From NCBI GenBank assembly GCA_036676455.1, contig JAKFCW010000021.1:21367-85366 (forward strand): 64,000 nt of DNA. Direction: 5' to 3'. The notes beneath the pieces were generated by a model, which was not told the DNA's origin, did not search any database, and saw only the letters and a program-made list of their open reading frames with translations. This document shows, piece after piece, positions 29,197 to 51,970 of the stretch (the stretch's first letter is position 1; each line of letters starts with the position of its first letter). The translations under genes and the position numbers were made by a program. This DNA comes from Candidatus Sericytochromatia bacterium. GTDB taxonomy: Bacteria; Cyanobacteriota; Sericytochromatia; S15B-MN24; UBA4093.

Positions 29197-31446
29197 CTAA
29201 TGAGGAAGCAGGGACTCGACGAGATCCCCCAGGCGGTTGAAGAGGCCCACCGAGAGCGAGTTGGCGGGGGGTTGCCTGAGCACGTGGGGATGCCCGTGGG
29301 AGTCGAGGATCCGGTAATCGGTCTCACCCGAGGCGTCGCGCCAGAAGTGCAGGCTCACGCGCGAGTCTCCGACCGGGATGTTGGAGAGGCTCAATTCGGG
29401 TAGCCAGTCGGGCAGGGACGGGTCGATCAGGATGGCGTTGAGCGGGGCGTAGGCGCGGATGCCCAGGAAGGCCTGGATCAGCATGGGAATGGCGCTGGCG
29501 GACCAGGCTTGGGGGGCGTTGGAGCGCGGGTAGATGCCGGGGTGGGGGTGGCGGCGATCGCGCGCATGTCCGCCCATCGCCTCGGGCAGGCGGTTCTCGT
29601 CGAAGATCGTGGTGGCCTCGAAGAGGCCGCGCGCGAGGTCATGCACCAGCCCGTTCAACCCATAACGCTTGAATCCAAAGGCGATCGACCCATTCTCCGA
29701 GGGCCAAACCGAGCCCAGGTGGTAGGCGAAGGGATTGTAGGCGGGGTGAAGGCTGGACAGGGTGCGGATTCCCCAGCCCGTGAACATGTCCGGAGCCATC
29801 AGGCGTCCGGCCACGGCGGCGGCCTTGTCCTGGTCGACGATGCCGCAGGCGAGGCAGTGGCCCATGTTGGAGCCGATGGTGGGGACCTGGCGTTTTTCCG
29901 GGTCCAGGGCCAGGGCCAGGGCGCCTTCTTCTTCCAGCCAGAAGGCCTGGTTGAAGCGGGTCTTGAGGTCCTCGGCCTGGCGGATGAGGTCGAGGCCGCG
30001 CGCGACGTCTCCCAGGGCGAGAAAGGTCTGCCCGATCAGCTGCTTGGCGACGAAGTAGTAGCCCTGGATCTCGACGGAGGCGATGGGGTTGGGGACGCAG
30101 GCACCGTCCACGTAAAGGACGGCTTCGTCGGAGTCCTTCCAGCCTTGGTTCTTGGTGCCCCAGTCGCCGGCGCGGGTGTCGTACTCGTAGAAGCCGTCCC
30201 CGTCGCGGTCGCCCTCGCGGTCCATCCACTCGAGGACGCGCAGGGCATGGGGCTTCATGCGGCGCTGGAAATCGCGATCGCCCGTGAGCATGAAGTCCCA
30301 GCCCAGGCCGATCAGGAAGAGGCCGGGGCCGGCGTAGTCGCCGTAGTAGCGCAGGAAAGGGGTTATGCCCAGCAAGGCGAGGGGGCTGAGCTGGTGCTGG
30401 TGGATCACGCGGCCGACTTGCTCGTCGTAGCGGTCGTCGCGCTTGCTTCCGAGCCAGCGCGCGATGGTCTCCAGGGTACCGCGCAGCATCAGGGGGCTGA
30501 CGAGGCCGGCTTGCCAGACGGTGGTGAGGGTGTCGCGGCCGAACAGGGCCTGGTAAATCGGGATGCCGGCGGCGGGCGTGTAGATCTCGGGGCCCTTGCC
30601 GTCATAAAGGGGCAGTGAGCCGAGATCCGAGACGGCTCGGTCCCAGGCGTCCTGGACCATGCTCGAGGGCACTTCCAGGCGGGGGACTTGCCGGAACCAG
30701 TCGTCACGCGCCTGGTCCCAGCGCGTATCGCGCGAGCGAAAGGAGTCGCAGTCGTAGATGGGGTCATGGCGTTCGCCGCAGAAGGCCGGATGCAGGGACA
30801 TGCAGAATCGCAGGGGCTTCTGGGGCTCGAGGAGCAAGCGATAGCAGACCTTGTCATTCTCCCAGGTGGGCGAGCCCTGGACGGCCGGGAAGCGCATCAG
30901 GGTTTCATGGCAAAGGTCGGCGTGAGTATAGCGGAAGCTCAGCTCGCGCGGGTCGTCGCCGTCGAGCCAGGTCCGGATGACGGGGGCCTCTTGCAGGCGG
31001 CGGCCCTCCACGGCCTCGGTGAGGTCCGCGAAGTCGGCGGAGAAGTCCCAGGCGAGCGTGAGCGTGGTGGGGACGAGGCCGTGGTTGGTCAGGTAGACGT
31101 CCAGGTGGAGGCCGTCTCCGACGAAGCCGTTGAGCTGGATCTCGATGGCCTTTTCCATGATCTCGCCGCCGCGATCGGGCGGGGGGCCGGCGCGTTCGCC
31201 GGCGGGACTGGGGGCCAGGTAGTAGGAGATGAACGAGTACGCGTCGACCGGGTTGGCCGAGACGAAGGTGAGGGGTAGGCCGTCCACCGAGAGGTCCATG
31301 CGCTGGAGGAAGCGGGTCTGGTGGTGGTAGAAGCCCTCGATGCCCTGGCGGATCTGGCCATGGACCCCGGTGATCAGGAGCGAGTGGCCCTGGTACGCGA
31401 TCAGGGCCTCCGGAAACATCTTGAAGCGGTTGATGTCCTTGAGCAT
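29197..31446 (-). CDS. Amylo-alpha-1,6-glucosidase / glycogen-debranching-enzyme family protein
   Basis: 749 aa from MLKDINRF, with GGAGG upstream. It has an N-terminal GDE_N-like region and a C-terminal (alpha/alpha)6-type region (IYQALFGRDTLTT, DGDGFYEYD, GWKDS). Confidence 0.75.
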   Translation of the reverse strand: MLKDINRFKMFPEALIAYQGHSLLITGVHGQIRQGIEGFYHHQTRFLQRMDLSVDGLPLTFVSANPVDAYSFISYYLAPSPAGERAGPPPDRGGEIMEKAIEIQLNGFVGDGLHLDVYLTNHGLVPTTLTLAWDFSADFADLTEAVEGRRLQEAPVIRTWLDGDDPRELSFRYTHADLCHETLMRFPAVQGSPTWENDKVCYRLLLEPQKPLRFCMSLHPAFCGERHDPIYDCDSFRSRDTRWDQARDDWFRQVPRLEVPSSMVQDAWDRAVSDLGSLPLYDGKGPEIYTPAAGIPIYQALFGRDTLTTVWQAGLVSPLMLRGTLETIARWLGSKRDDRYDEQVGRVIHQHQLSPLALLGITPFLRYYGDYAGPGLFLIGLGWDFMLTGDRDFQRRMKPHALRVLEWMDREGDRDGDGFYEYDTRAGDWGTKNQGWKDSDEAVLYVDGACVPNPIASVEIQGYYFVAKQLIGQTFLALGDVARGLDLIRQAEDLKTRFNQAFWLEEEGALALALDPEKRQVPTIGSNMGHCLACGIVDQDKAAAVAGRLMAPDMFTGWGIRTLSSLHPAYNPFAYHLGSVWPSENGSIAFGFKRYGLNGLVHDLARGLFEATTIFDENRLPEAMGGHARDRRHPHPGIYPRSNAPQAWSASAIPMLIQAFLGIRAYAPLNAILIDPSLPDWLPELSLSNIPVGDSRVSLHFWRDASGETDYRILDSHGHPHVLRQPPANSLSVGLFNRLGDLVESLLPH

Positions 31447-31612
31447 GGCGCCCTCCTTCCCGTTCCTCCTGCCGTGGAGGGACGCGTCGAGGCAAGCCGC
31501 CCTTGCGCCGGCTCTCAACTTATTAACACATGTGAAGGAGCCCTGGAAACGCTCGTTGGTTAACAGGCGTCTGGCTCAGGGGTTTCGGGGCTTGCGTTGG
31601 GGAGGTTTCAAC

Positions 31613-32764
31613 ATGAACAAGGCGTTGGCGGTACTCACTGGACTGGGGGTCGGGGCGGGCCTCACCTACCTGGCCGATCCGGAGCGGGGAAAGCGGCGGC
31701 GGGCCCTCATTCGCGACAAGGCGATCCACGCGTCGCGCGTGAGCCGCGACGGGCTGGACGTGGCGCGCCGGGATCTCGGCAACCGGGCGTCGGGCTGGGT
31801 GGCGGCGACCTCCAGCCGCCTGCGCGCGGAAGCGGTCGACGACGCGATCCTGGTGGCCCGGGTCCGGGCCAAGCTGGGGCGTCACTGCGCGCAGCCGCAT
31901 GCCGTCGAGGTGGCTGCCCACGAGGGGCGGGTGGTGCTCGCGGGGGCGATCCTGGCCTCGGAGGCGGGGGTCGTGCTCGACGCGATCCGGCGGGTAGCGG
32001 GGGTGGAGGGCATCGAGGACCGGCTCGTCCGGCGCGAAGGGGCGGGACGGCCCGGTGAGGGCGTCGAACCCAGCGCGGACGAGATCCGCCTGCGCCAGGC
32101 GTACTGGTCGCCGGCATATCGGCTGGTGGTCGGTGTCGGCGGTGGCAGTCTGGTCCTCTGGGGGCTGGCAAGGCGGGGGTTCTTGGGCACGGGCCTTGGC
32201 TTGCTGGGGGCGGGGCTGCTGGGGCGGGCGATCGCCAACCAAGAATTGCGCGGCCTCTTGGGTCTCGGCACGGCGGGGCAGGGGTTCACGGTGCAGAAGA
32301 CCCTGACGGTGGAGGCCGCGATCGATCAGGTCTTCGCGTTCTGGAGCCAGCCCGCGAACTTCCCGCGCTTCATGCGCCATGTCCGGGAGGTGCGCGACCT
32401 GGGCGCGGGACGCTCGCACTGGGTGGTGAGCGGGCCGGCGGGGATCGCCGTGGAGTGGGAGGCCGAGACGACGCGCGTGATCCCGAACCGCCTGATCGCC
32501 TGGCGCAGCGTGCCCGGCTCGACCGTCGCTCACGAGGGAACGGTCCACCTCCAGGAGACGGCGGAGGGCGGCACCCGGCTGCACATCCAGCTTTGCTACC
32601 ACCCGCCGGCCGGGATCGTGGGGCATGCGGTGGCGACGCTCTTCGGGGCGGACCCCAAGCATGAGATGGACGAGGACCTGGCCCGCATGAAGCTCTTGAT
32701 CCCGCGCGAGGCCATCAGCGGGTCGGCTCCGACCCGGAAGCCGGTGACGCTGGGCCCGCATTGA
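31613..32764 (+). CDS. Membrane protein with YtxH-like N-terminus, BON domain, TM segment and SRPBCC (cyclase/dehydrase-like) domain
   Basis: 383 aa from MNKALAV, with GGAGG 7 nt upstream. BON-like stretch: DDAILVARVRAKL ... VVLAGAILASEAGVVLDAIRRVAGVEGIEDRL. Gly-rich TM region. SRPBCC-like stretch: FTVQKTLTVEAAIDQVFAFWSQPANFPRFM. Confidence 0.6.
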   Translation: MNKALAVLTGLGVGAGLTYLADPERGKRRRALIRDKAIHASRVSRDGLDVARRDLGNRASGWVAATSSRLRAEAVDDAILVARVRAKLGRHCAQPHAVEVAAHEGRVVLAGAILASEAGVVLDAIRRVAGVEGIEDRLVRREGAGRPGEGVEPSADEIRLRQAYWSPAYRLVVGVGGGSLVLWGLARRGFLGTGLGLLGAGLLGRAIANQELRGLLGLGTAGQGFTVQKTLTVEAAIDQVFAFWSQPANFPRFMRHVREVRDLGAGRSHWVVSGPAGIAVEWEAETTRVIPNRLIAWRSVPGSTVAHEGTVHLQETAEGGTRLHIQLCYHPPAGIVGHAVATLFGADPKHEMDEDLARMKLLIPREAISGSAPTRKPVTLGPH

Positions 32765-33419
32765 GGCGGAAGGCGTTGGACGCGAGGTGGGCCTGCCGGG
32801 TCGGCTCGGGCAGGCGGTAGCCGCGGGCGCCGTCGAGGACCCAGCGTACGGCGGTTTCCGCGGAGATCCGGTGCCCGCATGAGACGTAGACCGGGTTGAC
32901 CTTGTTCTTGGTGCGCACGGCGTACCCGACCACCTCGGAGCGGTGGATCAGGGGCGCCGTGCTGCCGCGTTCGGGGGGCAGCGCGTCGTGCGTGCCCACC
33001 AGCAGGGACTTGGCGCAGCCGAGGGTGGGCTTGTCGAGCAGGATGCCGAGGTGGCAGGCGACGCCGATGCGGCGGGGATGGGCGCGCCCGTGCCCGTCGA
33101 CCATGATCAGGTCGGGCGGGATCGTCAGGCGTTCGTAGGCGGCCAGCGCCAGGGGCACCTCCCGGAAGGAAAGCAGGCCCGGGATGTAGGGCATGGGCAG
33201 GCGCATGCGGGCGTGGGCGACGTCGACGATCTCGAGGTCGGGCCAGCTCAGCACGACGATGGCCGCGTCGCCCTCCGCGCTGCCGCGCGTGGTGGAGACG
33301 TCGACTCCCGCGACGGTCCGCACGTTCGCAAAGTCGTCCTCGCAGCGCACGCGCGCGGCGAGGACGCGCTGCATGGCGATCGCCTCGGACGGCGTGAGAT
33401 CCCAGCGAAGCGTGGTCAT
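32715..33419 (-). CDS. nfi: Endonuclease V
   Basis: 234 aa with VAGVDVS, YIPGLLSFREVP and MVDGHGRAHPRRIGVACHLG. The 3' end overlaps the convergent gene by 50 nt. Confidence 0.9.
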   Translation of the reverse strand: MTTLRWDLTPSEAIAMQRVLAARVRCEDDFANVRTVAGVDVSTTRGSAEGDAAIVVLSWPDLEIVDVAHARMRLPMPYIPGLLSFREVPLALAAYERLTIPPDLIMVDGHGRAHPRRIGVACHLGILLDKPTLGCAKSLLVGTHDALPPERGSTAPLIHRSEVVGYAVRTKNKVNPVYVSCGHRISAETAVRWVLDGARGYRLPEPTRQAHLASNAFRLNAGPASPASGSEPTR

Positions 33420-33729
33420 GCCGCCATCCTACCAAGGATTGCGCGCCCCGGGCGGGACGATTCGGCCCAAGCTTTTTGGCCACGCCCCCACCAAGGCCCG
33501 ATCGGCCCCTCGCCGCGAGCCCGGCCGGGCCCCGGCCCCCGCCGAGTGGGCAGGGGTTGGGACCCACCGCGCGGCGGGCCTCTCAGGCAGCAGAGGGAGC
33601 GTTGTCGCAGGACAGGGGAAGCGATAAGTTATGCCCCATAGGCGACAGGCCGTCAAAACGGCAAGGGCACTCCCGATAGGGCGCCCAAGGGAAGCCGCGA
33701 AGACGGACACGTAAAGGAGGTCACTCCGC

Positions 33730-34344
33730 ATGAAAGCGACTCGGATTTTTGGCCTGGCCGTGGCAACCACCTTGGCGGGCACGCTCGGTTGCGCGCAGAA
33801 CGTCCCCAGCGTCCCCGCTGCCCAGACCCCGGACATCCCGCAGGTGCAAGCCGCGGCGAACGGGCCCGTCGCGCCCGAAAACCTCCTGGTCGGTAACTTC
33901 CAGACCATGGTCAACGGCCAGGCGATGAGCGTCGACGAGATCCGCAAGCAGCTTCCCTCCCGCATCTCCGCGGCCGATGCGGCCAAGATGCTGGTCAAGA
34001 TCGACATCGACAAGGTCGTTCAGGACGGTGAGTACGACACCCAGCAGTTCCGGCGCGGCTTCGGTGGCCGCGGCTTCGGTGGCCGCGGCTTCATCGGCCG
34101 GGGCTTCGGCGGCCGGGGCTTCTTCGGGCGCGGCTTCTACGGCGGCTACGGCTTCCGCAGCCGCTTCTTCAACCGGGGCTTCTACGGCGGCCTGGGCTTC
34201 TACCCCTACTCCAGCTACTACTTCCCGTACTACTACAACGCGGGCTACTACTACCCGTACACCTACAGCTACGCCAACACCCTCTGCTCGCCTTACCTGT
34301 ACGGCTACGGCGGCAGCTATTACCCCTACACCTGGGGCTGGTAG
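33730..34344 (+). CDS. Lipoprotein with RGF-repeat and Tyr-rich low-complexity tail (paralog 1)
   Basis: Signal peptide plus lipobox (LAGTLGC), with GGAGG upstream. The conserved block MVNGQAMSVDEIRKQLPSRISAADAAKMLV is shared with paralog 2 and differs mostly at third codon positions. The tail holds 22 Tyr in the last 70 residues. Confidence 0.75.
   Translation: MKATRIFGLAVATTLAGTLGCAQNVPSVPAAQTPDIPQVQAAANGPVAPENLLVGNFQTMVNGQAMSVDEIRKQLPSRISAADAAKMLVKIDIDKVVQDGEYDTQQFRRGFGGRGFGGRGFIGRGFGGRGFFGRGFYGGYGFRSRFFNRGFYGGLGFYPYSSYYFPYYYNAGYYYPYTYSYANTLCSPYLYGYGGSYYPYTWGW
34054..34143 (+). repeat. Six tandem 15-bp units encoding (R/G)GF-x-G repeats inside paralog 1
   Basis: cgcggcttcggtggc x2, then cgcggcttcatcggc, cggggcttcggcggc, cggggcttcttcggg, cgcggcttctacggc. 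Confidence 0.9.
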
Positions 34345-34357
34345 CCCTGAAACCCTG

Positions 34358-34395
34358 GGGTCGCCGGGAATTCCCGGCGACCCTTTCCGTTTCTC
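34358..34395 (+). terminator. Hairpin terminator after lipoprotein paralog 1
   Basis: Perfect 26-nt palindrome gggtcgccgggaa/ttcccggcgaccc, followed by tttccgtttc. Confidence 0.6.
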
Positions 34396-34684
34396 CACCT
34401 CCCGCGCGCATGACCACCCCTTGGCCAGGATGACGAGACTTTTCATCAGGTCCGACCAAAAGCCAGCTCGCCCGCAAGCGCGACGCGCCCGCGTCACCGG
34501 AGCATCGGACGGCTCGGCGGGCCTTCGGGCCTCCCGCCGTCAGGGGCTTTGAGCCAGCGAAGTATGCGTTGATCGAATCCCGACCGGGGGGTAGCTTGTG
34601 AACCGTAGTCGACGGGGCGCCGCGAAGTCCGACTCAGCGTCGGCTTTCCTTCGCTGGCCACGTGAAAAGGGAGGTAACCTCCGT

Positions 34685-35224
34685 ATGAATGCGACTCGAT
34701 GGCTTGGCCTGGCACTTTCCGCAGGGCTCGTCGGTGGGACGCTGGGCTGCGCCCAGTCCATGCCCGCCACCTCGACCCAGGCTCCCGCGGTCATCCCGCA
34801 GGCCCAGAGCGTTGCCGGTGGTGACGCGGCTCCCGAGAGCCTCTTCACCGGCGAACGGCAGATCATGGTCAACGGCAACGCCATGAACTTCGACGAGATC
34901 CGCAAGCAACTGCCCGCCCGCATCTCCGAAGCCGACGCCGCCAAGATGCTCGTCACGCTCAACCCCAACGAGGTCATGAACTCGGGCTCGGACTCCGAGC
35001 TGCAGCAGTGGCGCGGCCGCCGCTTCTTCCGCAGAGGCTTCTCGCCCTACTTCCGCACCCGCTTCCGCCGCTTCTCCTACTTCCCGTACCGGAACTTCTA
35101 CTTCCCGTACTACTACAACCTCGGCTACTACTACCCGTACACCTATCCCTTCTACTCGTACTCCTATTACCCGTTCTTCTACCGCCACAGCTACCGCTAC
35201 TGGCCGTACGCCTACCGCTGGTAG
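34685..35224 (+). CDS. Lipoprotein with Arg/Phe/Tyr-rich low-complexity tail (paralog 2)
   Basis: 179 aa from MNATRWLGL with lipobox VGGTLGC and GGAGG upstream. It shares MVNGNAMNFDEIRKQLPARISEADAAKMLV and FYFPYYYNLGYYYPYTY with paralog 1. Confidence 0.75.
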   Translation: MNATRWLGLALSAGLVGGTLGCAQSMPATSTQAPAVIPQAQSVAGGDAAPESLFTGERQIMVNGNAMNFDEIRKQLPARISEADAAKMLVTLNPNEVMNSGSDSELQQWRGRRFFRRGFSPYFRTRFRRFSYFPYRNFYFPYYYNLGYYYPYTYPFYSYSYYPFFYRHSYRYWPYAYRW

Positions 35225-35236
35225 TAACCCCGCCCA

Positions 35237-35270
35237 GGGCCGCCGGGAAATCCCGGCGGCCCTTTCGCGT
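35237..35270 (+). terminator. Hairpin terminator after lipoprotein paralog 2
   Basis: gggccgccggga-aa-tcccggcggccc followed by tttcgcg. The hairpin is homologous to the one after paralog 1. Confidence 0.55.
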
Positions 35271-35322
35271 TGCGGCCATGCGCGGTAAACTGGACTCTTC
35301 CAGTGAAAGGGAGGGACGACCC

Positions 35323-36375
35323 ATGCCCAAGCGCGTGGCCATGGCCCTCTCCGGGGGAGTCGACTCCGGGGTGGCCGCCTATCTACTGCAATCCAAGGGA
35401 TTCGACCTGGTGGGAGTCACCTCCCTCAACTACCCCGAGTCCCGCTGCTGCGACATGAAGTCCGTCTTCGACGCCGCCCGCATCGCCAAGCAGCTCGGCT
35501 TCCCCTACCACACGATCGACGTCCTCCAGTCCTTCAAGGAGAAGGTGATCGACGCCTTCACCGAAGGCTACAAGCTAGGCATCACGCCGAACGTCTGCAC
35601 CATCTGCAACTCCGAGGTCCGCTTCGAGGAACTCTTCGAGGAAGCCGCCTGGCGCTACGACGTCGACGCCATCGCCTCGGGCCACTACGCCCGCAACCGC
35701 TTCGATCCCGAGACCCGGCGCTGGCAACTGCTGCGTGGCATCGACCCCACCAAGGACCAGTCGTACATGCTCTACCGGCTGCGCCAGGAGCAGCTCGAAC
35801 GCTGCCTCTTCCCCCTGGGCGAAAAGACCAAGGAAGAGGTCCGGGCGATCGCCCGCGAGATCCCCCTCGAGGTCTCCCGCAAGCCCGACAGCCAGGACAT
35901 CTGCTTCGCCAACGGCGACACCCGCCAGTTCCTGGAGGATCGCATCGGCACGCAGCTCGCGCCGGGCCCCATCGTCGACGTCTCCGGCAAGACCCTCGGC
36001 ACGCACCAGGGCATCGCCTACTACACCGTCGGCCAGCGCCGCGGGCTCGGCATCGCGCATCCGCACCCCCTTTACGTGGTCCGGATCGACGCGAGCAGCA
36101 ACACCGTGGTCGTGGGCCCGATCGCGGCCGCCCACGGGCAAGCCGCCACCGTGCGTGACGTCCGCTGGGTCTCGGTCGCCGCGCCCGAGGCGCCCATGCG
36201 GGTCGAAGCCCAGGTGCGCTACCGGTCGCAGGCCATGCCGGCGCTGCTCACGCCACTATCGGATGGGCGCGTCCAGCTGGAGTTCGAGGAGCCGATCTTC
36301 GCCATCACGCCGGGGCAAGTCGCCGCCTTCTACCAGGGCGACCTGCTGCTGGGCGGCGGCGTTCTGGAGCGATAG
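35323..36375 (+). CDS. mnmA: tRNA 2-thiouridine(34) synthase MnmA
   Basis: 350 aa from MPKRVAMALSGGVDSGVAAYLL (PP-loop SGGxDS), with CNSEVRFEELF, KDQSYMLY and the family's catalytic Cys residues. Confidence 0.9.
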   Translation: MPKRVAMALSGGVDSGVAAYLLQSKGFDLVGVTSLNYPESRCCDMKSVFDAARIAKQLGFPYHTIDVLQSFKEKVIDAFTEGYKLGITPNVCTICNSEVRFEELFEEAAWRYDVDAIASGHYARNRFDPETRRWQLLRGIDPTKDQSYMLYRLRQEQLERCLFPLGEKTKEEVRAIAREIPLEVSRKPDSQDICFANGDTRQFLEDRIGTQLAPGPIVDVSGKTLGTHQGIAYYTVGQRRGLGIAHPHPLYVVRIDASSNTVVVGPIAAAHGQAATVRDVRWVSVAAPEAPMRVEAQVRYRSQAMPALLTPLSDGRVQLEFEEPIFAITPGQVAAFYQGDLLLGGGVLER

Positions 36376-36502: not shown

Positions 36503-37009
36503 TCAGGCCTGGGGACCGCGCGAGATCGCATCCGCCGAGGATGGGGCGGGCTTCGGCGAATCGCTCGCAGGCAAGACCCCCAGCTCGCGGAGCATCTCGG
36601 CGCCTTGCTCGACGGTCTCGCGCTCCGACTTGTACGTGAGGACCTTGAGGGCCTCGTCGAGGGGCCACCAGCGGGCCTCGTCCACCTCGGACGAGTCGTT
36701 GGAGGTCTCGCCCTCGAGGTGGCGGATCAGGAAGAAGTGGACGGTCTTGTGGATCTTGACCCCCTCTTCCTTGGCGTAGAACCAGTAGGAGATCTCGCCG
36801 ATCCGACGCAGGACCTCACCGATCAGGCCGGTTTCCTCCATGACTTCACGACAGGCCGCCTGTTCGAGGGTTTCCCCCTCCTCGAGACGTCCCTTGGGCA
36901 GCGCCCAGATTCGACCGCCACGCAGGGCGATGAGACCGATCTCGACGGTGCCGGATTGCTGGCGAAAGATCACTCCGCCGGATGAAACCTGATTCTTGAC
37001 CTTGGACAC
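36503..37009 (-). CDS. NUDIX hydrolase
   Basis: Nudix box GGRIWALPKGRLEEGETLEQAACREVMEETG. Confidence 0.88.
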   Translation of the reverse strand: MSKVKNQVSSGGVIFRQQSGTVEIGLIALRGGRIWALPKGRLEEGETLEQAACREVMEETGLIGEVLRRIGEISYWFYAKEEGVKIHKTVHFFLIRHLEGETSNDSSEVDEARWWPLDEALKVLTYKSERETVEQGAEMLRELGVLPASDSPKPAPSSADAISRGPQA

Positions 37010-37183: not shown

Positions 37184-38389
37184 GTGTCACGTAAGCCGCT
37201 CTTCGTTCTTTTCATCGCGATCTTCACCGTGATGATGGGCTTCGGCGTGGTCATCCCCGCCATGCCCTACTACGCCCGCACCCTGCATGGCGATGCCGTC
37301 TTCATCGGGGCCATGATGGCCTCGTACTCGCTCGCGCAGTTCCTAGTGGCCCCCTTCTGGGGACGCCTCTCGGATCGCTACGGCCGCAAGCCGTTCCTGA
37401 TCCTCGGACTGGTCGGGTTCGCCGTCTCGTTCCTCTGGTTCGGCCTCGCCAACAGCCTGCCCGGCCTCATGGCCGCCCGCACGCTGGGCGGCCTGCTCTC
37501 GGCGGCGGCGCTGCCGGCGGCCTTCGCCACCGTCTCCGACGTCACCACCGAGGAGAACCGGGCCAAGGGCATGGGCGTGGTCGGCGCCGCCATGGGACTC
37601 GGCATGGTCTTCGGGCCGGCCATCGGCGGATGGCTCGGGCATTACGGGCTCTCCACGCCGTTCTTCGTGGCCTCGGCGATCGCACTTCTGGCCGCCCTCC
37701 TCACCTTCGTGATGCTGCCCGAGTCGCTGCCCAAGCAGAACGCCGATAGCGCCGCGCCCGCCCGCGCCGGCTTCTTCCAGAACCTCAGGGAAACCCCGTC
37801 CGCGGCCTGGGGCCTCCTGGCGGTCACGTTCCTCTCCACCTTCGCCTTCGCCGGCTTCGAGACCGTCTTCGCGCTCTTCGTGCAGGACCGCCTCGTGCTC
37901 GACCCGCAATCGAGCGCCCACACCGTCGGCATGCTGCTCGCCGTCATGGGCCTGGTCTCGGCCCTGGTCCAGGGCGGCCTGGTCGGGCGCCTCATCAAGC
38001 AGACGGGGGAGCGCACGGTGCTCGCCTTGGGCCTCGGATTGATGGCCCTTACGATGATCTCGGTCAGCGCCACCTCCGCCTCGGCCTTCGCCTTCGCCTG
38101 CATCCTCGCTGTCATGGGCATCGCCCACGGCGTCATGCGGCCCGCCATCTCCTCGGGCATCTCCAAGGGAGCCGGCTCGGCCCAGGGATCGGCCCTTGGC
38201 ATGATGAGCTCCTTCGACAGCCTGGCCCGGGTGCTTGGGCCGCTGCTGGCCGGCGTCCTCTACGCCATGCAAGTCTCGCTGCCCTTCTACGCCTCGGCCC
38301 TGGCCCTCTTCGTCGGCGTCGCCGTCGTGCTCACGCTGGTGGCGCGCCCCAAGCCGCTGGCCGCCGCGCAACCCGAACCCGAAGCCTAA
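37184..38389 (+). CDS. MFS transporter (drug-efflux/TCR-like)
   Basis: 401 aa with about 12 TM helices and MFS motif A (GRLSDRYGRKP). GTG start. Confidence 0.85.
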   Translation: MSRKPLFVLFIAIFTVMMGFGVVIPAMPYYARTLHGDAVFIGAMMASYSLAQFLVAPFWGRLSDRYGRKPFLILGLVGFAVSFLWFGLANSLPGLMAARTLGGLLSAAALPAAFATVSDVTTEENRAKGMGVVGAAMGLGMVFGPAIGGWLGHYGLSTPFFVASAIALLAALLTFVMLPESLPKQNADSAAPARAGFFQNLRETPSAAWGLLAVTFLSTFAFAGFETVFALFVQDRLVLDPQSSAHTVGMLLAVMGLVSALVQGGLVGRLIKQTGERTVLALGLGLMALTMISVSATSASAFAFACILAVMGIAHGVMRPAISSGISKGAGSAQGSALGMMSSFDSLARVLGPLLAGVLYAMQVSLPFYASALALFVGVAVVLTLVARPKPLAAAQPEPEA

Positions 38390-50593: not shown

Positions 50594-51970
50594 CTAGTCC
50601 TCGCTTTCCTCGATGATCCCGGCCTCGATCGGCGTATCGTCGGGGCTTTCCACGCCGGCGGGCCTCATGCGGCCGCCTTTGCCGTGGTCGCGGGCCTTCT
50701 GCCCGCCGCCACGCCTCGCCTGCTGGCCTTCGCCCCCGCGCCTCACATGCCGGTTCTCTCCGTCATTCCGGCGAACCTGACGGTTGGGGCGGTCCCGTTC
50801 GGGGCGATCGCCTCGTACGCGCTCCCTCCCCTCGCCGCCATCCCCCTCACGGACCTGGCCCTCGTTGCCCTGGCGCTCATGCCCCTCCGAGCGGTGGCGC
50901 TTGCCCTGGTTGTAATCGGGGCGCTCCTCGCCCTGGTGCGGTCGGGGACGGTTGCCCTGGTTGTAATCCGGCCGATCCGGCCGGTCGTAGCGATCCGGCC
51001 GTTCGTGCCGGTCGCCGCGATCCGGGCGGTTCCCCTGCGGGTTGCCGGGACGATCGTTCCAGTCGGGGCGATTGCCGTGCTGGTTCCCCGGACGGTTGCC
51101 CTGATTGTAGTCCGGCCGGTTGGGCCGGTCGCCGCGATCCCGGCGGTAATCGCGGGCCCGCTCGCGCCAGTTCTCCTGGTGGCGGTCACGCCGGCGGTCA
51201 TCTAGCCAGCCCTTGAAGTGGCGCGAGCCCCAGCGACCGCGGTAGTGCCGGAAGTCGTCGTCGTAGCGATGGCGATACTTCGAGCGGTAGGTGGGCCAGT
51301 AGTACTCCCAGTCCAGGTAGCCGTAGCGGTAGCGCGACGACAGGAAGTAGTACGGGTAGCAGTAGTCGCCGTAGCTGTAGAAGAGCGGGTAGGCGTACAG
51401 GCCGCTCAGGGCCGCGTTGTAGTAGGGCGAGTAGGCGTAAGGGTAATAGCAGTTGCCCACCAGGAAGTAGGGAACCCAGAAGTTCATGTAGCGGAAGTAC
51501 ATGCAGCGCGCGAGCGCGTTGTAGGTCAAGAGGTCGGGGATGATGCCGGGATAGGCTCCGTAGCCGCCAGGACCGAAGGAATCAGGACCGATCCCGCCCG
51601 GCACCCCCTGGCCGAAGCCCTCGGGAATCGCACCCGGCATGGGGCTCAGCCAATCACCGGCTTCCTCCTGGGGAATGGAGGATGGCAGATCCTCGTAGAG
51701 CTGATCCAGGCTGACGTTTCCGCCGGTCGGCAGGACAAGGCCCCGCTCGTTGACGGAGAGCGGCGGCTGAGGAGCTTGCGGAGCCGTCTGGAGCGGCTGC
51801 ACATCGCCGGGGAAGGCCGGGGCGAGGTCCTCGGGGAAGGCTTCGCCGGCGAAGGGCGCCAGCGGATGCGCGGGACCATCGGTCGGCGGAGTGGTCATCG
51901 CCGGGGTACAGGCGGAAATCAGAAGCGTCGCAGCAAGTCCGAGAGATCCGTAGCGCAGCACCTTTTGCAT
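50594..51970 (-). CDS. Large lipoprotein with Tyr-rich core and Arg/Asp/Asn/Pro-rich repeat tail (distant relative of 33730 and 34685 genes)
   Basis: Signal peptide plus lipobox LLISAC, with GAGGAGG upstream. Tyr-rich block: CYYPYAYSPYYNAALSGLYAYPLFYSYGDYCYPYYFLSSRYRYGY. The tail carries RPDYNQG(N/K)R three times. Confidence 0.65.
   Translation of the reverse strand: MQKVLRYGSLGLAATLLISACTPAMTTPPTDGPAHPLAPFAGEAFPEDLAPAFPGDVQPLQTAPQAPQPPLSVNERGLVLPTGGNVSLDQLYEDLPSSIPQEEAGDWLSPMPGAIPEGFGQGVPGGIGPDSFGPGGYGAYPGIIPDLLTYNALARCMYFRYMNFWVPYFLVGNCYYPYAYSPYYNAALSGLYAYPLFYSYGDYCYPYYFLSSRYRYGYLDWEYYWPTYRSKYRHRYDDDFRHYRGRWGSRHFKGWLDDRRRDRHQENWRERARDYRRDRGDRPNRPDYNQGNRPGNQHGNRPDWNDRPGNPQGNRPDRGDRHERPDRYDRPDRPDYNQGNRPRPHQGEERPDYNQGKRHRSEGHERQGNEGQVREGDGGEGRERVRGDRPERDRPNRQVRRNDGENRHVRRGGEGQQARRGGGQKARDHGKGGRMRPAGVESPDDTPIEAGIIEESED

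Follow-up and report, generated by a model that had tools for sequence, protein, structure and literature searches.

Can a protein tail made up to an extreme degree of Tyr, Arg, Gly and Phe be anything other than low-complexity sequence, and what might such a protein do in the envelope of a bacterium? The question is raised by two neighbouring open reading frames (ORFs), ORF1 and ORF2, in a 64,000-nucleotide stretch of a Candidatus Sericytochromatia genome (assembly GCA_036676455.1, contig JAKFCW010000021.1, positions 21,367 to 85,366 of the forward strand), which is referred to here as the window. A first-pass annotation, made from the sequence alone, had described the products as tandem paralogous lipoproteins with low-complexity tails and had likened them to no described bacterial family. 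The analysis presented here confirms the genes and the novelty of the family, and indicates that each tail is composed of two different parts: a cationic loop of variable length, predicted to be disordered, and a Tyr/Pro module of almost fixed length, predicted to fold together with a conserved N-terminal block.

A tandem pair of tyrosine-rich genes

BLASTP comparison of the two products gave 52% identity over residues 1-109 (E = 9e-35), confirming that ORF1 and ORF2 are tandem paralogous genes (Table 1). The start of ORF2 is the ATG at position 34685; the program-made ORF list opens instead at a GTG at 34598. The GC content at codon positions 1, 2 and 3 is 0.57, 0.49 and 0.91 in ORF1 and 0.53, 0.48 and 0.89 in ORF2, in a window of 67% GC. 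Such high third-position values (GC3) in the forward frame make the reading frame of both genes secure. Moreover, the ratio of non-synonymous to synonymous substitution rates (dN/dS) against orthologues from another genome is 0.28 for ORF1 (versus P0008) and 0.26 for ORF2 (versus P0029), which indicates clear purifying selection on both genes; between the two paralogues the ratio is 0.62. The earlier statement that the paralogues differ mostly at synonymous positions within a shared core block (MVNG..AKMLV) proved about half true, since of its 30 codons 19 are the same in both genes, 6 show a synonymous difference and 5 a non-synonymous one.

Long ORFs also run antisense to both genes, and could be taken as a sign that there are no genes here at all, only a chance ORF pair in high-GC DNA, or that the antisense ORFs are the real ones. 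We attach almost no weight to this explanation, which is already refuted by the forward-frame GC3, by the orthologue dN/dS values, by more than 100 homologues with the same architecture and a conserved lipobox, and by the ribosome-binding, promoter-like and terminator-like elements, all of which lie on the forward strand. Because GC3 is high only in the forward frame, the antisense ORFs are regarded as high-GC artefacts.

The Tyr composition of the two products is far beyond chance. In 62,633 windows of 49 residues, drawn from stop-free segments of 100 aa or more in the six reading frames of the 64-kb window, the mean Tyr content was 0.42 per 49 residues, and 8 or more Tyr were found at three places only, namely ORF1, ORF2 and a third paralogue described below, with maxima of 20, 20 and 18, respectively.

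Both genes belong to a small family. A word-indexed search of 5.8 billion clustered proteins returned 39 clusters of 163-253 aa, all annotated as ‘hypothetical’ and none with a Pfam domain, and an exhaustive profile search of 1.84 billion representatives gave 115 matches at E <= 1e-3, of which 79 reached E <= 1e-10; nearly all span the profile from end to end. A few of the weakest matches (P0138, P0146 and P0148) are false positives, and the family has about 110 representatives overall; the column statistics given below refer to an alignment of 106 relatives.

Both products begin with a predicted lipoprotein signal peptide. A PROSITE PS51257-type rule was applied, which requires a Lys or Arg within the first seven positions, a hydrophobic stretch free of charged residues and a lipobox of the form [LIVMFWSTAG](2)-[LIVMFYSTAGCQ]-[AGS]-C with the Cys at positions 15-35. 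Both n-regions contain Lys/Arg followed by an uncharged hydrophobic stretch and then a lipobox, and the motifs singled out in the first-pass annotation, LAGTLGC and VGGTLGC, both pass. Among the relatives, 89 of 106 pass in the strict form and 101 in a relaxed form; the lipobox Cys is conserved in 97% and the Gly at position -1 in 90%, and the residue following the Cys is Ala or Ser in 72 of the 89. The products of ORF1 and ORF2 are predicted to be lipid-anchored envelope lipoproteins.

Searches for a described relative were negative throughout, in agreement with the earlier impression that no such bacterial family had been reported. Scans of the window proteins against Pfam, NCBIfam and PHROGs gave no match, and a Pfam scan of the 106 relatives with an NCBIfam scan of four of them gave only cupredoxin fusions (see below) and sub-threshold compositional matches. 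Against sequence profiles of the PDB, the best match of the whole family was KCMF1 (E = 0.017, 18.5 bits), which was judged to be chance, and the best match of the conserved N-terminal block alone had E = 0.9. Foldseek comparison of the AlphaFold2 models of both proteins with the PDB gave best E values of 0.7 and 1.6 and no credible analogue, with RSL/BambL lectins as top matches at a probability of 0.15 or less; one model compared with BFVD gave a best E of 2.5. Full-text literature searching found no paper on this lipoprotein family. What is new here is an undescribed protein family and its predicted fold, not a demonstrated mechanism.

Two candidate identities for parts of the N-terminal block were considered and rejected. 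Weak matches to ExbD/TolR (PF02472) occur in 8 of the 106 relatives (best E = 0.016) and cover the beta-hairpin and helix part of the block. The four matches inspected scored 12-13 bits, about half of the 25.4-bit cut-off; hhalign comparison of the block profile with E. coli ExbD and TolR gave a probability below 1%; and neither the PDB profile search at E <= 10 nor Foldseek returned a TolR or ExbD chain. A likeness of the helix-loop-helix to SAP/HeH or EF-hand motifs was dropped, as it had no profile support at E <= 5.

A predicted aromatic domain split by a variable loop

The two proteins share one order of parts: signal peptide, Pro/Ala/Gln tether, N-terminal block, cationic loop and Tyr/Pro module. 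Half of the columns of the ORF1 tether are gapped in the family, and the predicted local distance difference test score (pLDDT) of AlphaFold2 climbs from 41 to 84 along this stretch. The N-terminal block that follows is strongly conserved, with an invariant Pro and an invariant Leu and with L76 and A85 conserved in at least 92% of the 106 sequences, and its net charge is -4 and -5 in the two proteins.

The C-terminal module is conserved by position as well as by composition. The count of 22 Tyr in the last 70 residues of ORF1 given in the first-pass annotation holds on recounting, and ORF2 has 21. Across the 106 sequences, ORF2 positions 132-177 (46 residues) are almost free of indels at about 35% identity, Pro141, Pro151, Pro163 and Pro174 (ORF2 numbering) are each conserved in at least 94%, and aromatic occupancy at fixed module columns is 0.9-1.0. 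The module of 46-49 aa consists of five [aromatic][aromatic]-Pro-[aromatic] units spaced by 7, 10, 12 and 11 residues.

AlphaFold2 was run with ORF1 as query (41 sequences) and with ORF2 as query (106 sequences), two alignments that overlap. The ORF1 model has a predicted template modelling score (pTM) of 0.63, with pLDDT 75-92 over residues 31-108 and 80-92 over residues 150-204, and the ORF2 model a pTM of 0.65, with pLDDT 82-97 over residues 121-179. In the module, strands are predicted at residues 156-160, 163-170, 173-176, 179-181, 184-193 and 196-203 of ORF1 (pLDDT 80-92) and at residues 131-135, 138-145, 148-151, 154-156, 159-168 and 171-178 of ORF2 (pLDDT 82-97). Both models have a common topology, in which a beta-hairpin, two short helices around the LPxRIS loop and a QQ strand are followed by the disordered loop and by three Tyr/Pro beta-hairpins. 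The pTM values suggest that the hairpins of the module pack with the N-terminal block into one domain. Block and module always co-occur in the family. The stretch between them accepts inserts as varied as RGF, RGY, Gly/His, Ser-rich and a 180-residue Asp-rich sequence; owing to this constant co-occurrence, and to a confident global score despite the loop, block and module are taken to form a single compact aromatic domain, each contributing one half, with the permissive loop displayed between them.

The loop behaves very differently. It carries a net charge of +10 in ORF1 and +9 in ORF2, and the tails of both proteins contain no Asp or Glu at all. The repeats reported for ORF1 in the first-pass annotation are borne out: there are seven RGF motifs, of which six recur with a strict period of 5 residues, and the underlying DNA is a 15-bp tandem repeat of 5.6 copies (34054-34137). 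All seven RG dipeptides of ORF1 lie in RGF, six of them 3 residues apart, which fits a tri-RG pattern, defined as at least three units with gaps of 0-4 residues in disordered sequence, and does not fit RGG; ORF2 has two RG. Residues 110-145 of ORF1 have pLDDT below 50 and are predicted to be disordered. The loop is also the main site of indels, with a mean of 9.8, 5.0 and 1.7 inserted residues at ORF2 positions 113-121; indels cluster in the stretch that separates the invariant QQ strand from the Tyr region, and occur after the C-terminus as well. A 98%-identical strain protein, P0001, equals ORF1 minus exactly one GGRGF unit, that is, one 15-bp unit.

Across relatives the loop contains RGF, RGY or RGW, Gly/His repeats (P0095) or Ser/Arg (P0059). 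In P0127 the loop site holds an insert of about 180 aa made of DKDGKPD/NKDGIPD repeats, with a calcium-binding-like, Asp-rich look, and the site can thus accept large insertions. The flavour of the loop is retained among orthologues of different genomes and the RGF region has a dN/dS of 0.16 (ORF1 versus P0008), which together indicate that the loop is constrained and not junk.

The description of the tails as low-complexity sequence thus stands for one part only. It applies to the RG[FY] loop, with its conserved composition, variable length, predicted disorder and repeat variation between strains; it does not apply to the Tyr part, with its fixed and nearly indel-free columns. Likewise, the prion-like pattern, in which composition is kept while positions are free and the chain is disordered, is found in the RG loop only and not in the Tyr module.

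This distinction bears on the explanation, in line with the first-pass annotation, that the whole C-terminal half is disordered Arg/Gly/aromatic sequence, forming a tethered cation-pi condensate or gel, or a dityrosine-linked matrix or adhesive. The composition is suggestive (23-30% Tyr, 9-18% Arg and no acidic residues), as are the six tandem RGF units with a copy number that varies between strains, and phase separation of FUS is driven by Arg-Tyr contacts (PMC5927716). Purely compositional matches to Keratin_2_head (17 of 106 members), Lamprin and plant glycine-rich proteins (GRPs) point the same way, together with a non-significant match to the low-complexity fibril chain of hnRNPDL (E = 3.7). 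Set against these, the Tyr half is position-conserved, near indel-free and predicted as confident beta-hairpins in both AlphaFold2 runs; it is internal in 30 of the 106 relatives; and no oxidase, peroxidase or laccase gene is found among the conserved neighbours. A condensate or matrix of this kind fits only the loop half, and we consider this explanation unlikely.

If the hairpins are real, they might instead associate between molecules. Hairpins of many copies, perhaps from different paralogues, could stack by their edges or faces into a lipid-anchored fibril, sheet or sheath, similar to a functional amyloid or a surface (S-) layer, with the loops and tails as decoration. The hairpins, each a unit of about 21-23 residues that turns at Gly/Asn and carries ladders of aromatic residues, the aromatics on both faces of the predicted strands, one of which is probably exposed, and the retention of three to four paralogues per genome would all suit such a polymer. 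Conserved Pro residues within strands classically block open-ended beta aggregation. Neither curlin, Fap nor any other amyloid repeat family was among the Pfam matches listed for the window proteins and the 106 relatives, dedicated secretion or nucleation genes were not found nearby, and module and N-terminal block are placed in one monomeric model in each AlphaFold2 run. Taken together, a self-assembling beta polymer is unlikely.

The C-terminus itself has features that recall outer-membrane proteins: ORF1 and ORF2 end in Trp, 68 of the 106 relatives end in Trp, Tyr or Phe, and the module has aromatic-rich amphipathic strands. It could be imagined that the Tyr strands, with the aromatic end as a beta-signal, insert into the outer membrane as an oligomeric barrel or interfacial anchor. 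The module has only about 48 residues and six short strands, those of ORF2 carry Arg, and both models join it to a soluble helical block. In addition, 30 of the 106 relatives run on for more than 30 residues past the module; four of these extensions are soluble cupredoxin domains, and the third paralogue has a charged tail of 240 residues. Such extensions indicate that the Tyr module is no C-terminal sorting signal, and we regard membrane insertion as very improbable.

Distribution, third paralogue and gene context

The third, divergent paralogue was found by tblastn of ORF1 and ORF2 against the window (E = 1e-10 and 2e-9) and lies 16 kb from the gene pair. It has the same order of parts and also passes the lipobox rule (Cys21); its loop, in contrast, is Gly/Pro-rich and not cationic, and its Tyr/Pro module is followed by a polyampholyte tail of about 240 aa rich in Arg, Asp, Glu, Asn, Gln and Pro. 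Its orthologues form a separate set of 14 clusters and lie on the contigs that also carry those of ORF1 and ORF2, and hhalign comparison of its profile with that of the main family gave a probability of 99.3% (E = 2e-20). The tail contains RPDYNQGNRP-like repeats, and orthologues in the same genomes vary widely in tail length (384-536 aa).

Named sources of family members are Candidatus Sericytochromatia bacterium LC028, S15B-MN24 CBMW_12 and another Sericytochromatia metagenome-assembled genome (MAG); others are ‘Cyanobacteria bacterium UBA8530’, ‘NC_groundwater_1444’, compost metagenomes, one unclassified ‘bacterium’ and one ‘Bacteroidota’ MAG. Judging from these few named sources, the family hardly extends beyond Candidatus Sericytochromatia and unclassified Cyanobacteriota. 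In S15B-MN24-like genomes the gene order is glucosidase, BON/SRPBCC protein, endonuclease V, paralogue slot, mnmA, NUDIX hydrolase and major facilitator superfamily (MFS) transporter, and the slot between endonuclease V and mnmA holds one to three tandem copies in the window and in three other genomes. In a distant lineage (locus L006, 5648-6964 of a JGI 3300056724 contig), two tandem 178-aa copies lie by fliD and a T2SSE-type ATPase gene, and tandem duplication of the family has thus arisen independently there.

Gene context was dropped as a guide to function, given the housekeeping neighbours, the separate promoter- and terminator-like elements of each paralogue and the unrelated surroundings of distant members. 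The idea that the proteins are precursors of ribosomally synthesized and post-translationally modified peptides (RiPPs) was also rejected: no modifying enzyme is conserved in the syntenic locus, and the proteins are 160-250 aa long with lipoprotein signals. Only one distant locus (L003) has a radical-SAM gene, which is encoded on the opposite strand some 3 kb upstream.

Four relatives (P0059, P0082, P0093 and P0105) carry a C-terminal type-1 copper cupredoxin domain (PF00127/PF13473) with scores that exceed the Pfam cut-offs, and an NCBIfam scan of these four gave matches of the amicyanin and plastocyanin type. They share the lipobox, the block and the Tyr module, and their loop is Ser/Arg or polar, not RGF. 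As cupredoxins work in the periplasm, the fusions suggest a periplasmic location. They also open the possibility of a redox role, in which the Tyr/Trp array would act at the membrane as an electron- or hole-hopping relay or as a sacrificial antioxidant, alongside periplasmic copper proteins; the extreme Tyr/Trp density would agree with this. The fusion is found in only 4 of about 110 representatives, the Pfam scan found no cupredoxin domain in any of the three window proteins, and these have neither a metal-binding motif nor a His/Cys/Met pattern. Respiratory genes are absent from the conserved neighbours. Lipoprotein tethers are common on cupredoxins, and the fusion may reflect no more than a shared location. 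A redox role is judged very unlikely.

Within the pair, each paralogue appears to form its own transcription unit, with its own promoter-like element, ribosome-binding site and hairpin. Across six aligned upstream regions from paralogues and orthologues, the TTG, the TA and the last T of sigma-70-like TTGnnn and TAnnnT elements are invariant, with 17 nt between the two elements, or 18 nt in a single region. A consensus promoter scanner made no call at either element, and both are proposed as putative promoters on the basis of upstream conservation. Downstream, a terminator scanner called the hairpin behind ORF1 and made no call behind ORF2, where the tail has fewer than five T. The two hairpins, GGGTCGCCGGGAATTCCCGGCGACCC and GGGCCGCCGGGaaatCCCGGCGGCCC, are near-identical, and together with the promoter-like elements at both genes they indicate that the duplicated unit took its regulatory elements and terminator along. 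A scan of the window against Rfam gave no RNA element.

Both genes have a strong ribosome-binding site of the AGGAGG type. The Shine-Dalgarno GGAGG stands directly 5' of its own complement (GGAGGTCACTCC, GGAGGTAACCTCC, GAGGGAAACCCTC), so as to form a mini-hairpin of 4-5 bp in seven of nine paralogue starts, with equivalents at loci L001, L002 and L008; among the true gene starts of the window it is seen only at ORF1 and ORF2. Thermodynamic significance was not reached (z about -0.6) and there is little covariation. The mini-hairpin could be a means of translational control or could be incidental.

Table 1. Coordinates of the genes, protein parts and candidate signals in the window (aa, amino acids).
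Feature	Position	Strand	Details
ORF1, paralogue 1	33730..34344	+	204-aa lipoprotein (predicted), Gly-rich RGF-loop type; orthologues P0008, P0005
ORF1 signal peptide and lipobox	33730..33792	+	aa 1-21, Cys21; passes PS51257-type rule
ORF1 Pro/Ala/Gln tether	33793..33897	+	aa 22-56; read from sequence
ORF1 conserved N-terminal block	33898..34050	+	aa 57-107; predicted beta-hairpin, helix-loop-helix (LPxRISxADAxxxLVxID) and QQ strand; AlphaFold2 pLDDT 75-92
ORF1 cationic loop	34051..34194	+	aa 108-155; 10 Arg, 20 Gly and 11 Phe in 48 residues, no Asp/Glu; 7 RGF motifs
ORF1 Tyr/Pro beta module (predicted)	34195..34341	+	aa 156-204; 19 Tyr in 49 residues; five [YFW][YFW]P[YFW] units
ORF2, paralogue 2	34685..35224	+	179-aa lipoprotein (predicted), Gly-poor Arg/Phe-loop type; orthologues P0029, P0026, P0023
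ORF2 signal peptide and lipobox	34685..34750	+	aa 1-22, Cys22; passes PS51257-type rule
ORF2 conserved N-terminal block	34856..35011	+	aa 58-109; pLDDT rising from 64 to 95 across the block; predicted helices 69-75 and 82-88
ORF2 cationic loop	35012..35074	+	aa 110-130; 9 Arg and 6 Phe in 21 residues, no Asp/Glu; pLDDT about 50-60
ORF2 Tyr/Pro beta module (predicted)	35075..35221	+	aa 131-179; 20 Tyr, 6 Phe and 2 Trp in 49 residues
Third, divergent paralogue	50594..51970	-	458 aa; lipobox LISAC, block VSLDQLYEDLPSSIPQEEAGDWL, Gly/Pro loop, internal Tyr/Pro module, tail of about 240 aa
ORF1 putative promoter	33602..33630	+	-35 TTGTCG (33602-33607), 17-nt spacer, -10 TAAGTT (33625-33630); conservation only
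ORF2 putative promoter	34570..34598	+	-35 TTGATC (34570-34575), 17-nt spacer, -10 TAGCTT (34593-34598); conserved columns
ORF1 Shine-Dalgarno GGAGG	33716..33727	+	4-bp mini-hairpin (GGAGGTCACTCC), 2 nt upstream of ATG
ORF2 Shine-Dalgarno GGAGG	34670..34682	+	5-bp mini-hairpin (GGAGGTAACCTCC) upstream of ATG
Terminator-like hairpin downstream of ORF1	34357..34394	+	12-bp GC hairpin at 34357-34384 plus T-rich tail; scanner call
GC hairpin downstream of ORF2	35237..35262	+	GGGCCGCCGGG-aaat-CCCGGCGGCCC, weak T tail; read from sequence
Antisense ORF over ORF1	33721-34497	-	258 aa; mechanical ORF call
Antisense ORF over ORF2	34634-35188	-	184 aa; mechanical ORF call
BON/SRPBCC-like protein	31340-32764	+	syntenic frame
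Endonuclease V	32715-33419	-	syntenic frame
mnmA (tRNA 2-thiouridylase)	35300-36375	+	syntenic frame
NUDIX hydrolase	36503-37009	-	syntenic frame
MFS transporter	37184-38389	+	syntenic frame

A possible envelope role, and comparison with known systems

Of the explanations considered, we prefer, tentatively and at somewhat less than an even chance, that of a lipoprotein family in which a bipartite conserved domain with a display loop acts as an envelope tether or scaffold. In such a mechanism, which is put forward with low confidence, the protein would be held by its lipid in an envelope membrane and extended on the Pro/Ala/Gln tether of about 35 residues. The rigid, Tyr-faced sheet would provide a surface for stacking, and the Arg-rich loop would make multivalent electrostatic and cation-pi contacts. 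Together, sheet and loop might bind an anionic envelope polymer, such as peptidoglycan, lipopolysaccharide or exopolysaccharide, or neighbouring copies through their Tyr faces, or both. On this view the proteins would be abundant structural tethers or scaffolds of the cell envelope, with paralogues of differing loop chemistry tuning the layer.

Several points weigh against this proposal. Lipidation, location and ligand are all matters that we infer. The predicted fold has no apparent analogue of known ligand among PDB and BFVD structures (Foldseek E of 0.7 or higher). AlphaFold2 can over-predict beta-hairpins in repetitive aromatic sequences, and Pro occurs in nearly all of the predicted strands, which is unusual for a regular sheet. 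The loops of the cupredoxin-fused relatives and of the third paralogue are not cationic, and binding of polyanions through Arg can therefore not be a universal function of the family. Finally, the gene context offers no functional partner, as the conserved neighbours are housekeeping genes and distant members lie in unrelated contexts.

A more far-reaching version, which we think improbable, is that the proteins build a membrane-tethered, cohesive extracytoplasmic layer. Here the Tyr beta fold would serve as a ‘sticker’ platform, the Arg loops of the ORF1 and ORF2 types and the polyampholyte tail of the third paralogue would supply multivalent cation-pi and charge contacts, and the result would be a gel-like periplasmic or surface phase, a bacterial counterpart of Arg/Tyr condensates and possibly, given the cupredoxin fusions, a redox-active one.

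Sericytochromatia are an uncultured, non-photosynthetic sister lineage of the oxygenic cyanobacteria, and to our knowledge their cell envelope is essentially unstudied. A lipoprotein family kept in several copies per genome, with strong translation signals and apparently restricted to this lineage, is a plausible major envelope component, and a marker of the lineage. If the fold prediction is true, a compact domain in which tyrosine makes up about 40% of the beta half and every unit has a conserved Pro, and which has no detected relative of solved structure, should interest structural biologists and protein designers; and the juxtaposition of a ‘sticker-rich’ low-complexity loop with a compositionally similar but apparently folded sequence would offer a natural test of the boundary between low-complexity and structured sequence. 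This significance rests on prediction throughout.

Among known systems, the periplasmic domain of ExbD/TolR shares with the family only the weak PF02472 similarity over the N-terminal block, which profile comparison did not bear out. The Vlp/Vsa systems of Mycoplasma consist of variable surface lipoproteins that contain tandem repeats. They resemble the present family in a constant lipoprotein leader, in a repeat copy number that shifts between close strains (P0001 versus ORF1) and in tandem paralogue arrays. The repeat here, in contrast, is an internal loop between two conserved domain halves, the lineage is unrelated, and neither phase-variation machinery nor homopolymer tracts were seen.

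Spore-coat proteins of the Bacillus CotC/CotU type, lamprin and plant glycine-rich proteins are similarly extreme in Tyr and Gly and have an extracytoplasmic structural setting, and the weak Lamprin and GRP matches point to this likeness. Those matches are compositional and far under the cut-offs, and the present proteins differ in their predicted lipid anchor and non-repetitive block. No evidence for cross-linking enzymes was found in the gene neighbourhoods of the family.

The RG/RGG and Tyr-rich prion-like domains of FUS and hnRNP proteins (PMC5927716) are like the tails described here in their Arg/Gly/aromatic composition, in the closely spaced RG units of ORF1, in predicted disorder and in the lack of acidic residues. 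The present proteins, in contrast, are bacterial, exported and lipid-anchored (as predicted); their repeat is RGF and not RGG, with only two RG in ORF2; and their Tyr part is position-conserved and predicted to be folded.

Another likeness is to the aromatic beta-hairpin repeats that bind cell walls, such as the choline-binding repeats (CW_binding_1, PF01473) and glucan-binding YG repeats, e.g. in CbpL (PMC5137146). These also consist of short aromatic beta-hairpins with Gly turns, in an envelope setting, with an aromatic surface on which a ligand can stack. The family described here has a unit of 10-12 residues versus about 20, a conserved Pro per unit and only five units, tied to the N-terminal block. 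In ORF1 and ORF2 themselves CW_binding_1 was not matched at E <= 1, and for the 106 members at E <= 5 it does not occur in the Pfam listing, which covers 25 of the 30 families matched.

Finally, a lipid anchor, a long disordered tether and a small globular domain form a known plan of envelope lipoproteins, of which LpoB is an example. The present proteins have no known sequence or fold relation to the LpoB type, and their domain differs in being split by a hypervariable cationic loop and in having one half that is about 40% tyrosine. What they do share with it is the layout: a lipobox signal peptide, a Pro/Ala-rich tether of about 35 residues and a small compact domain, predicted here, that would be held away from the membrane.

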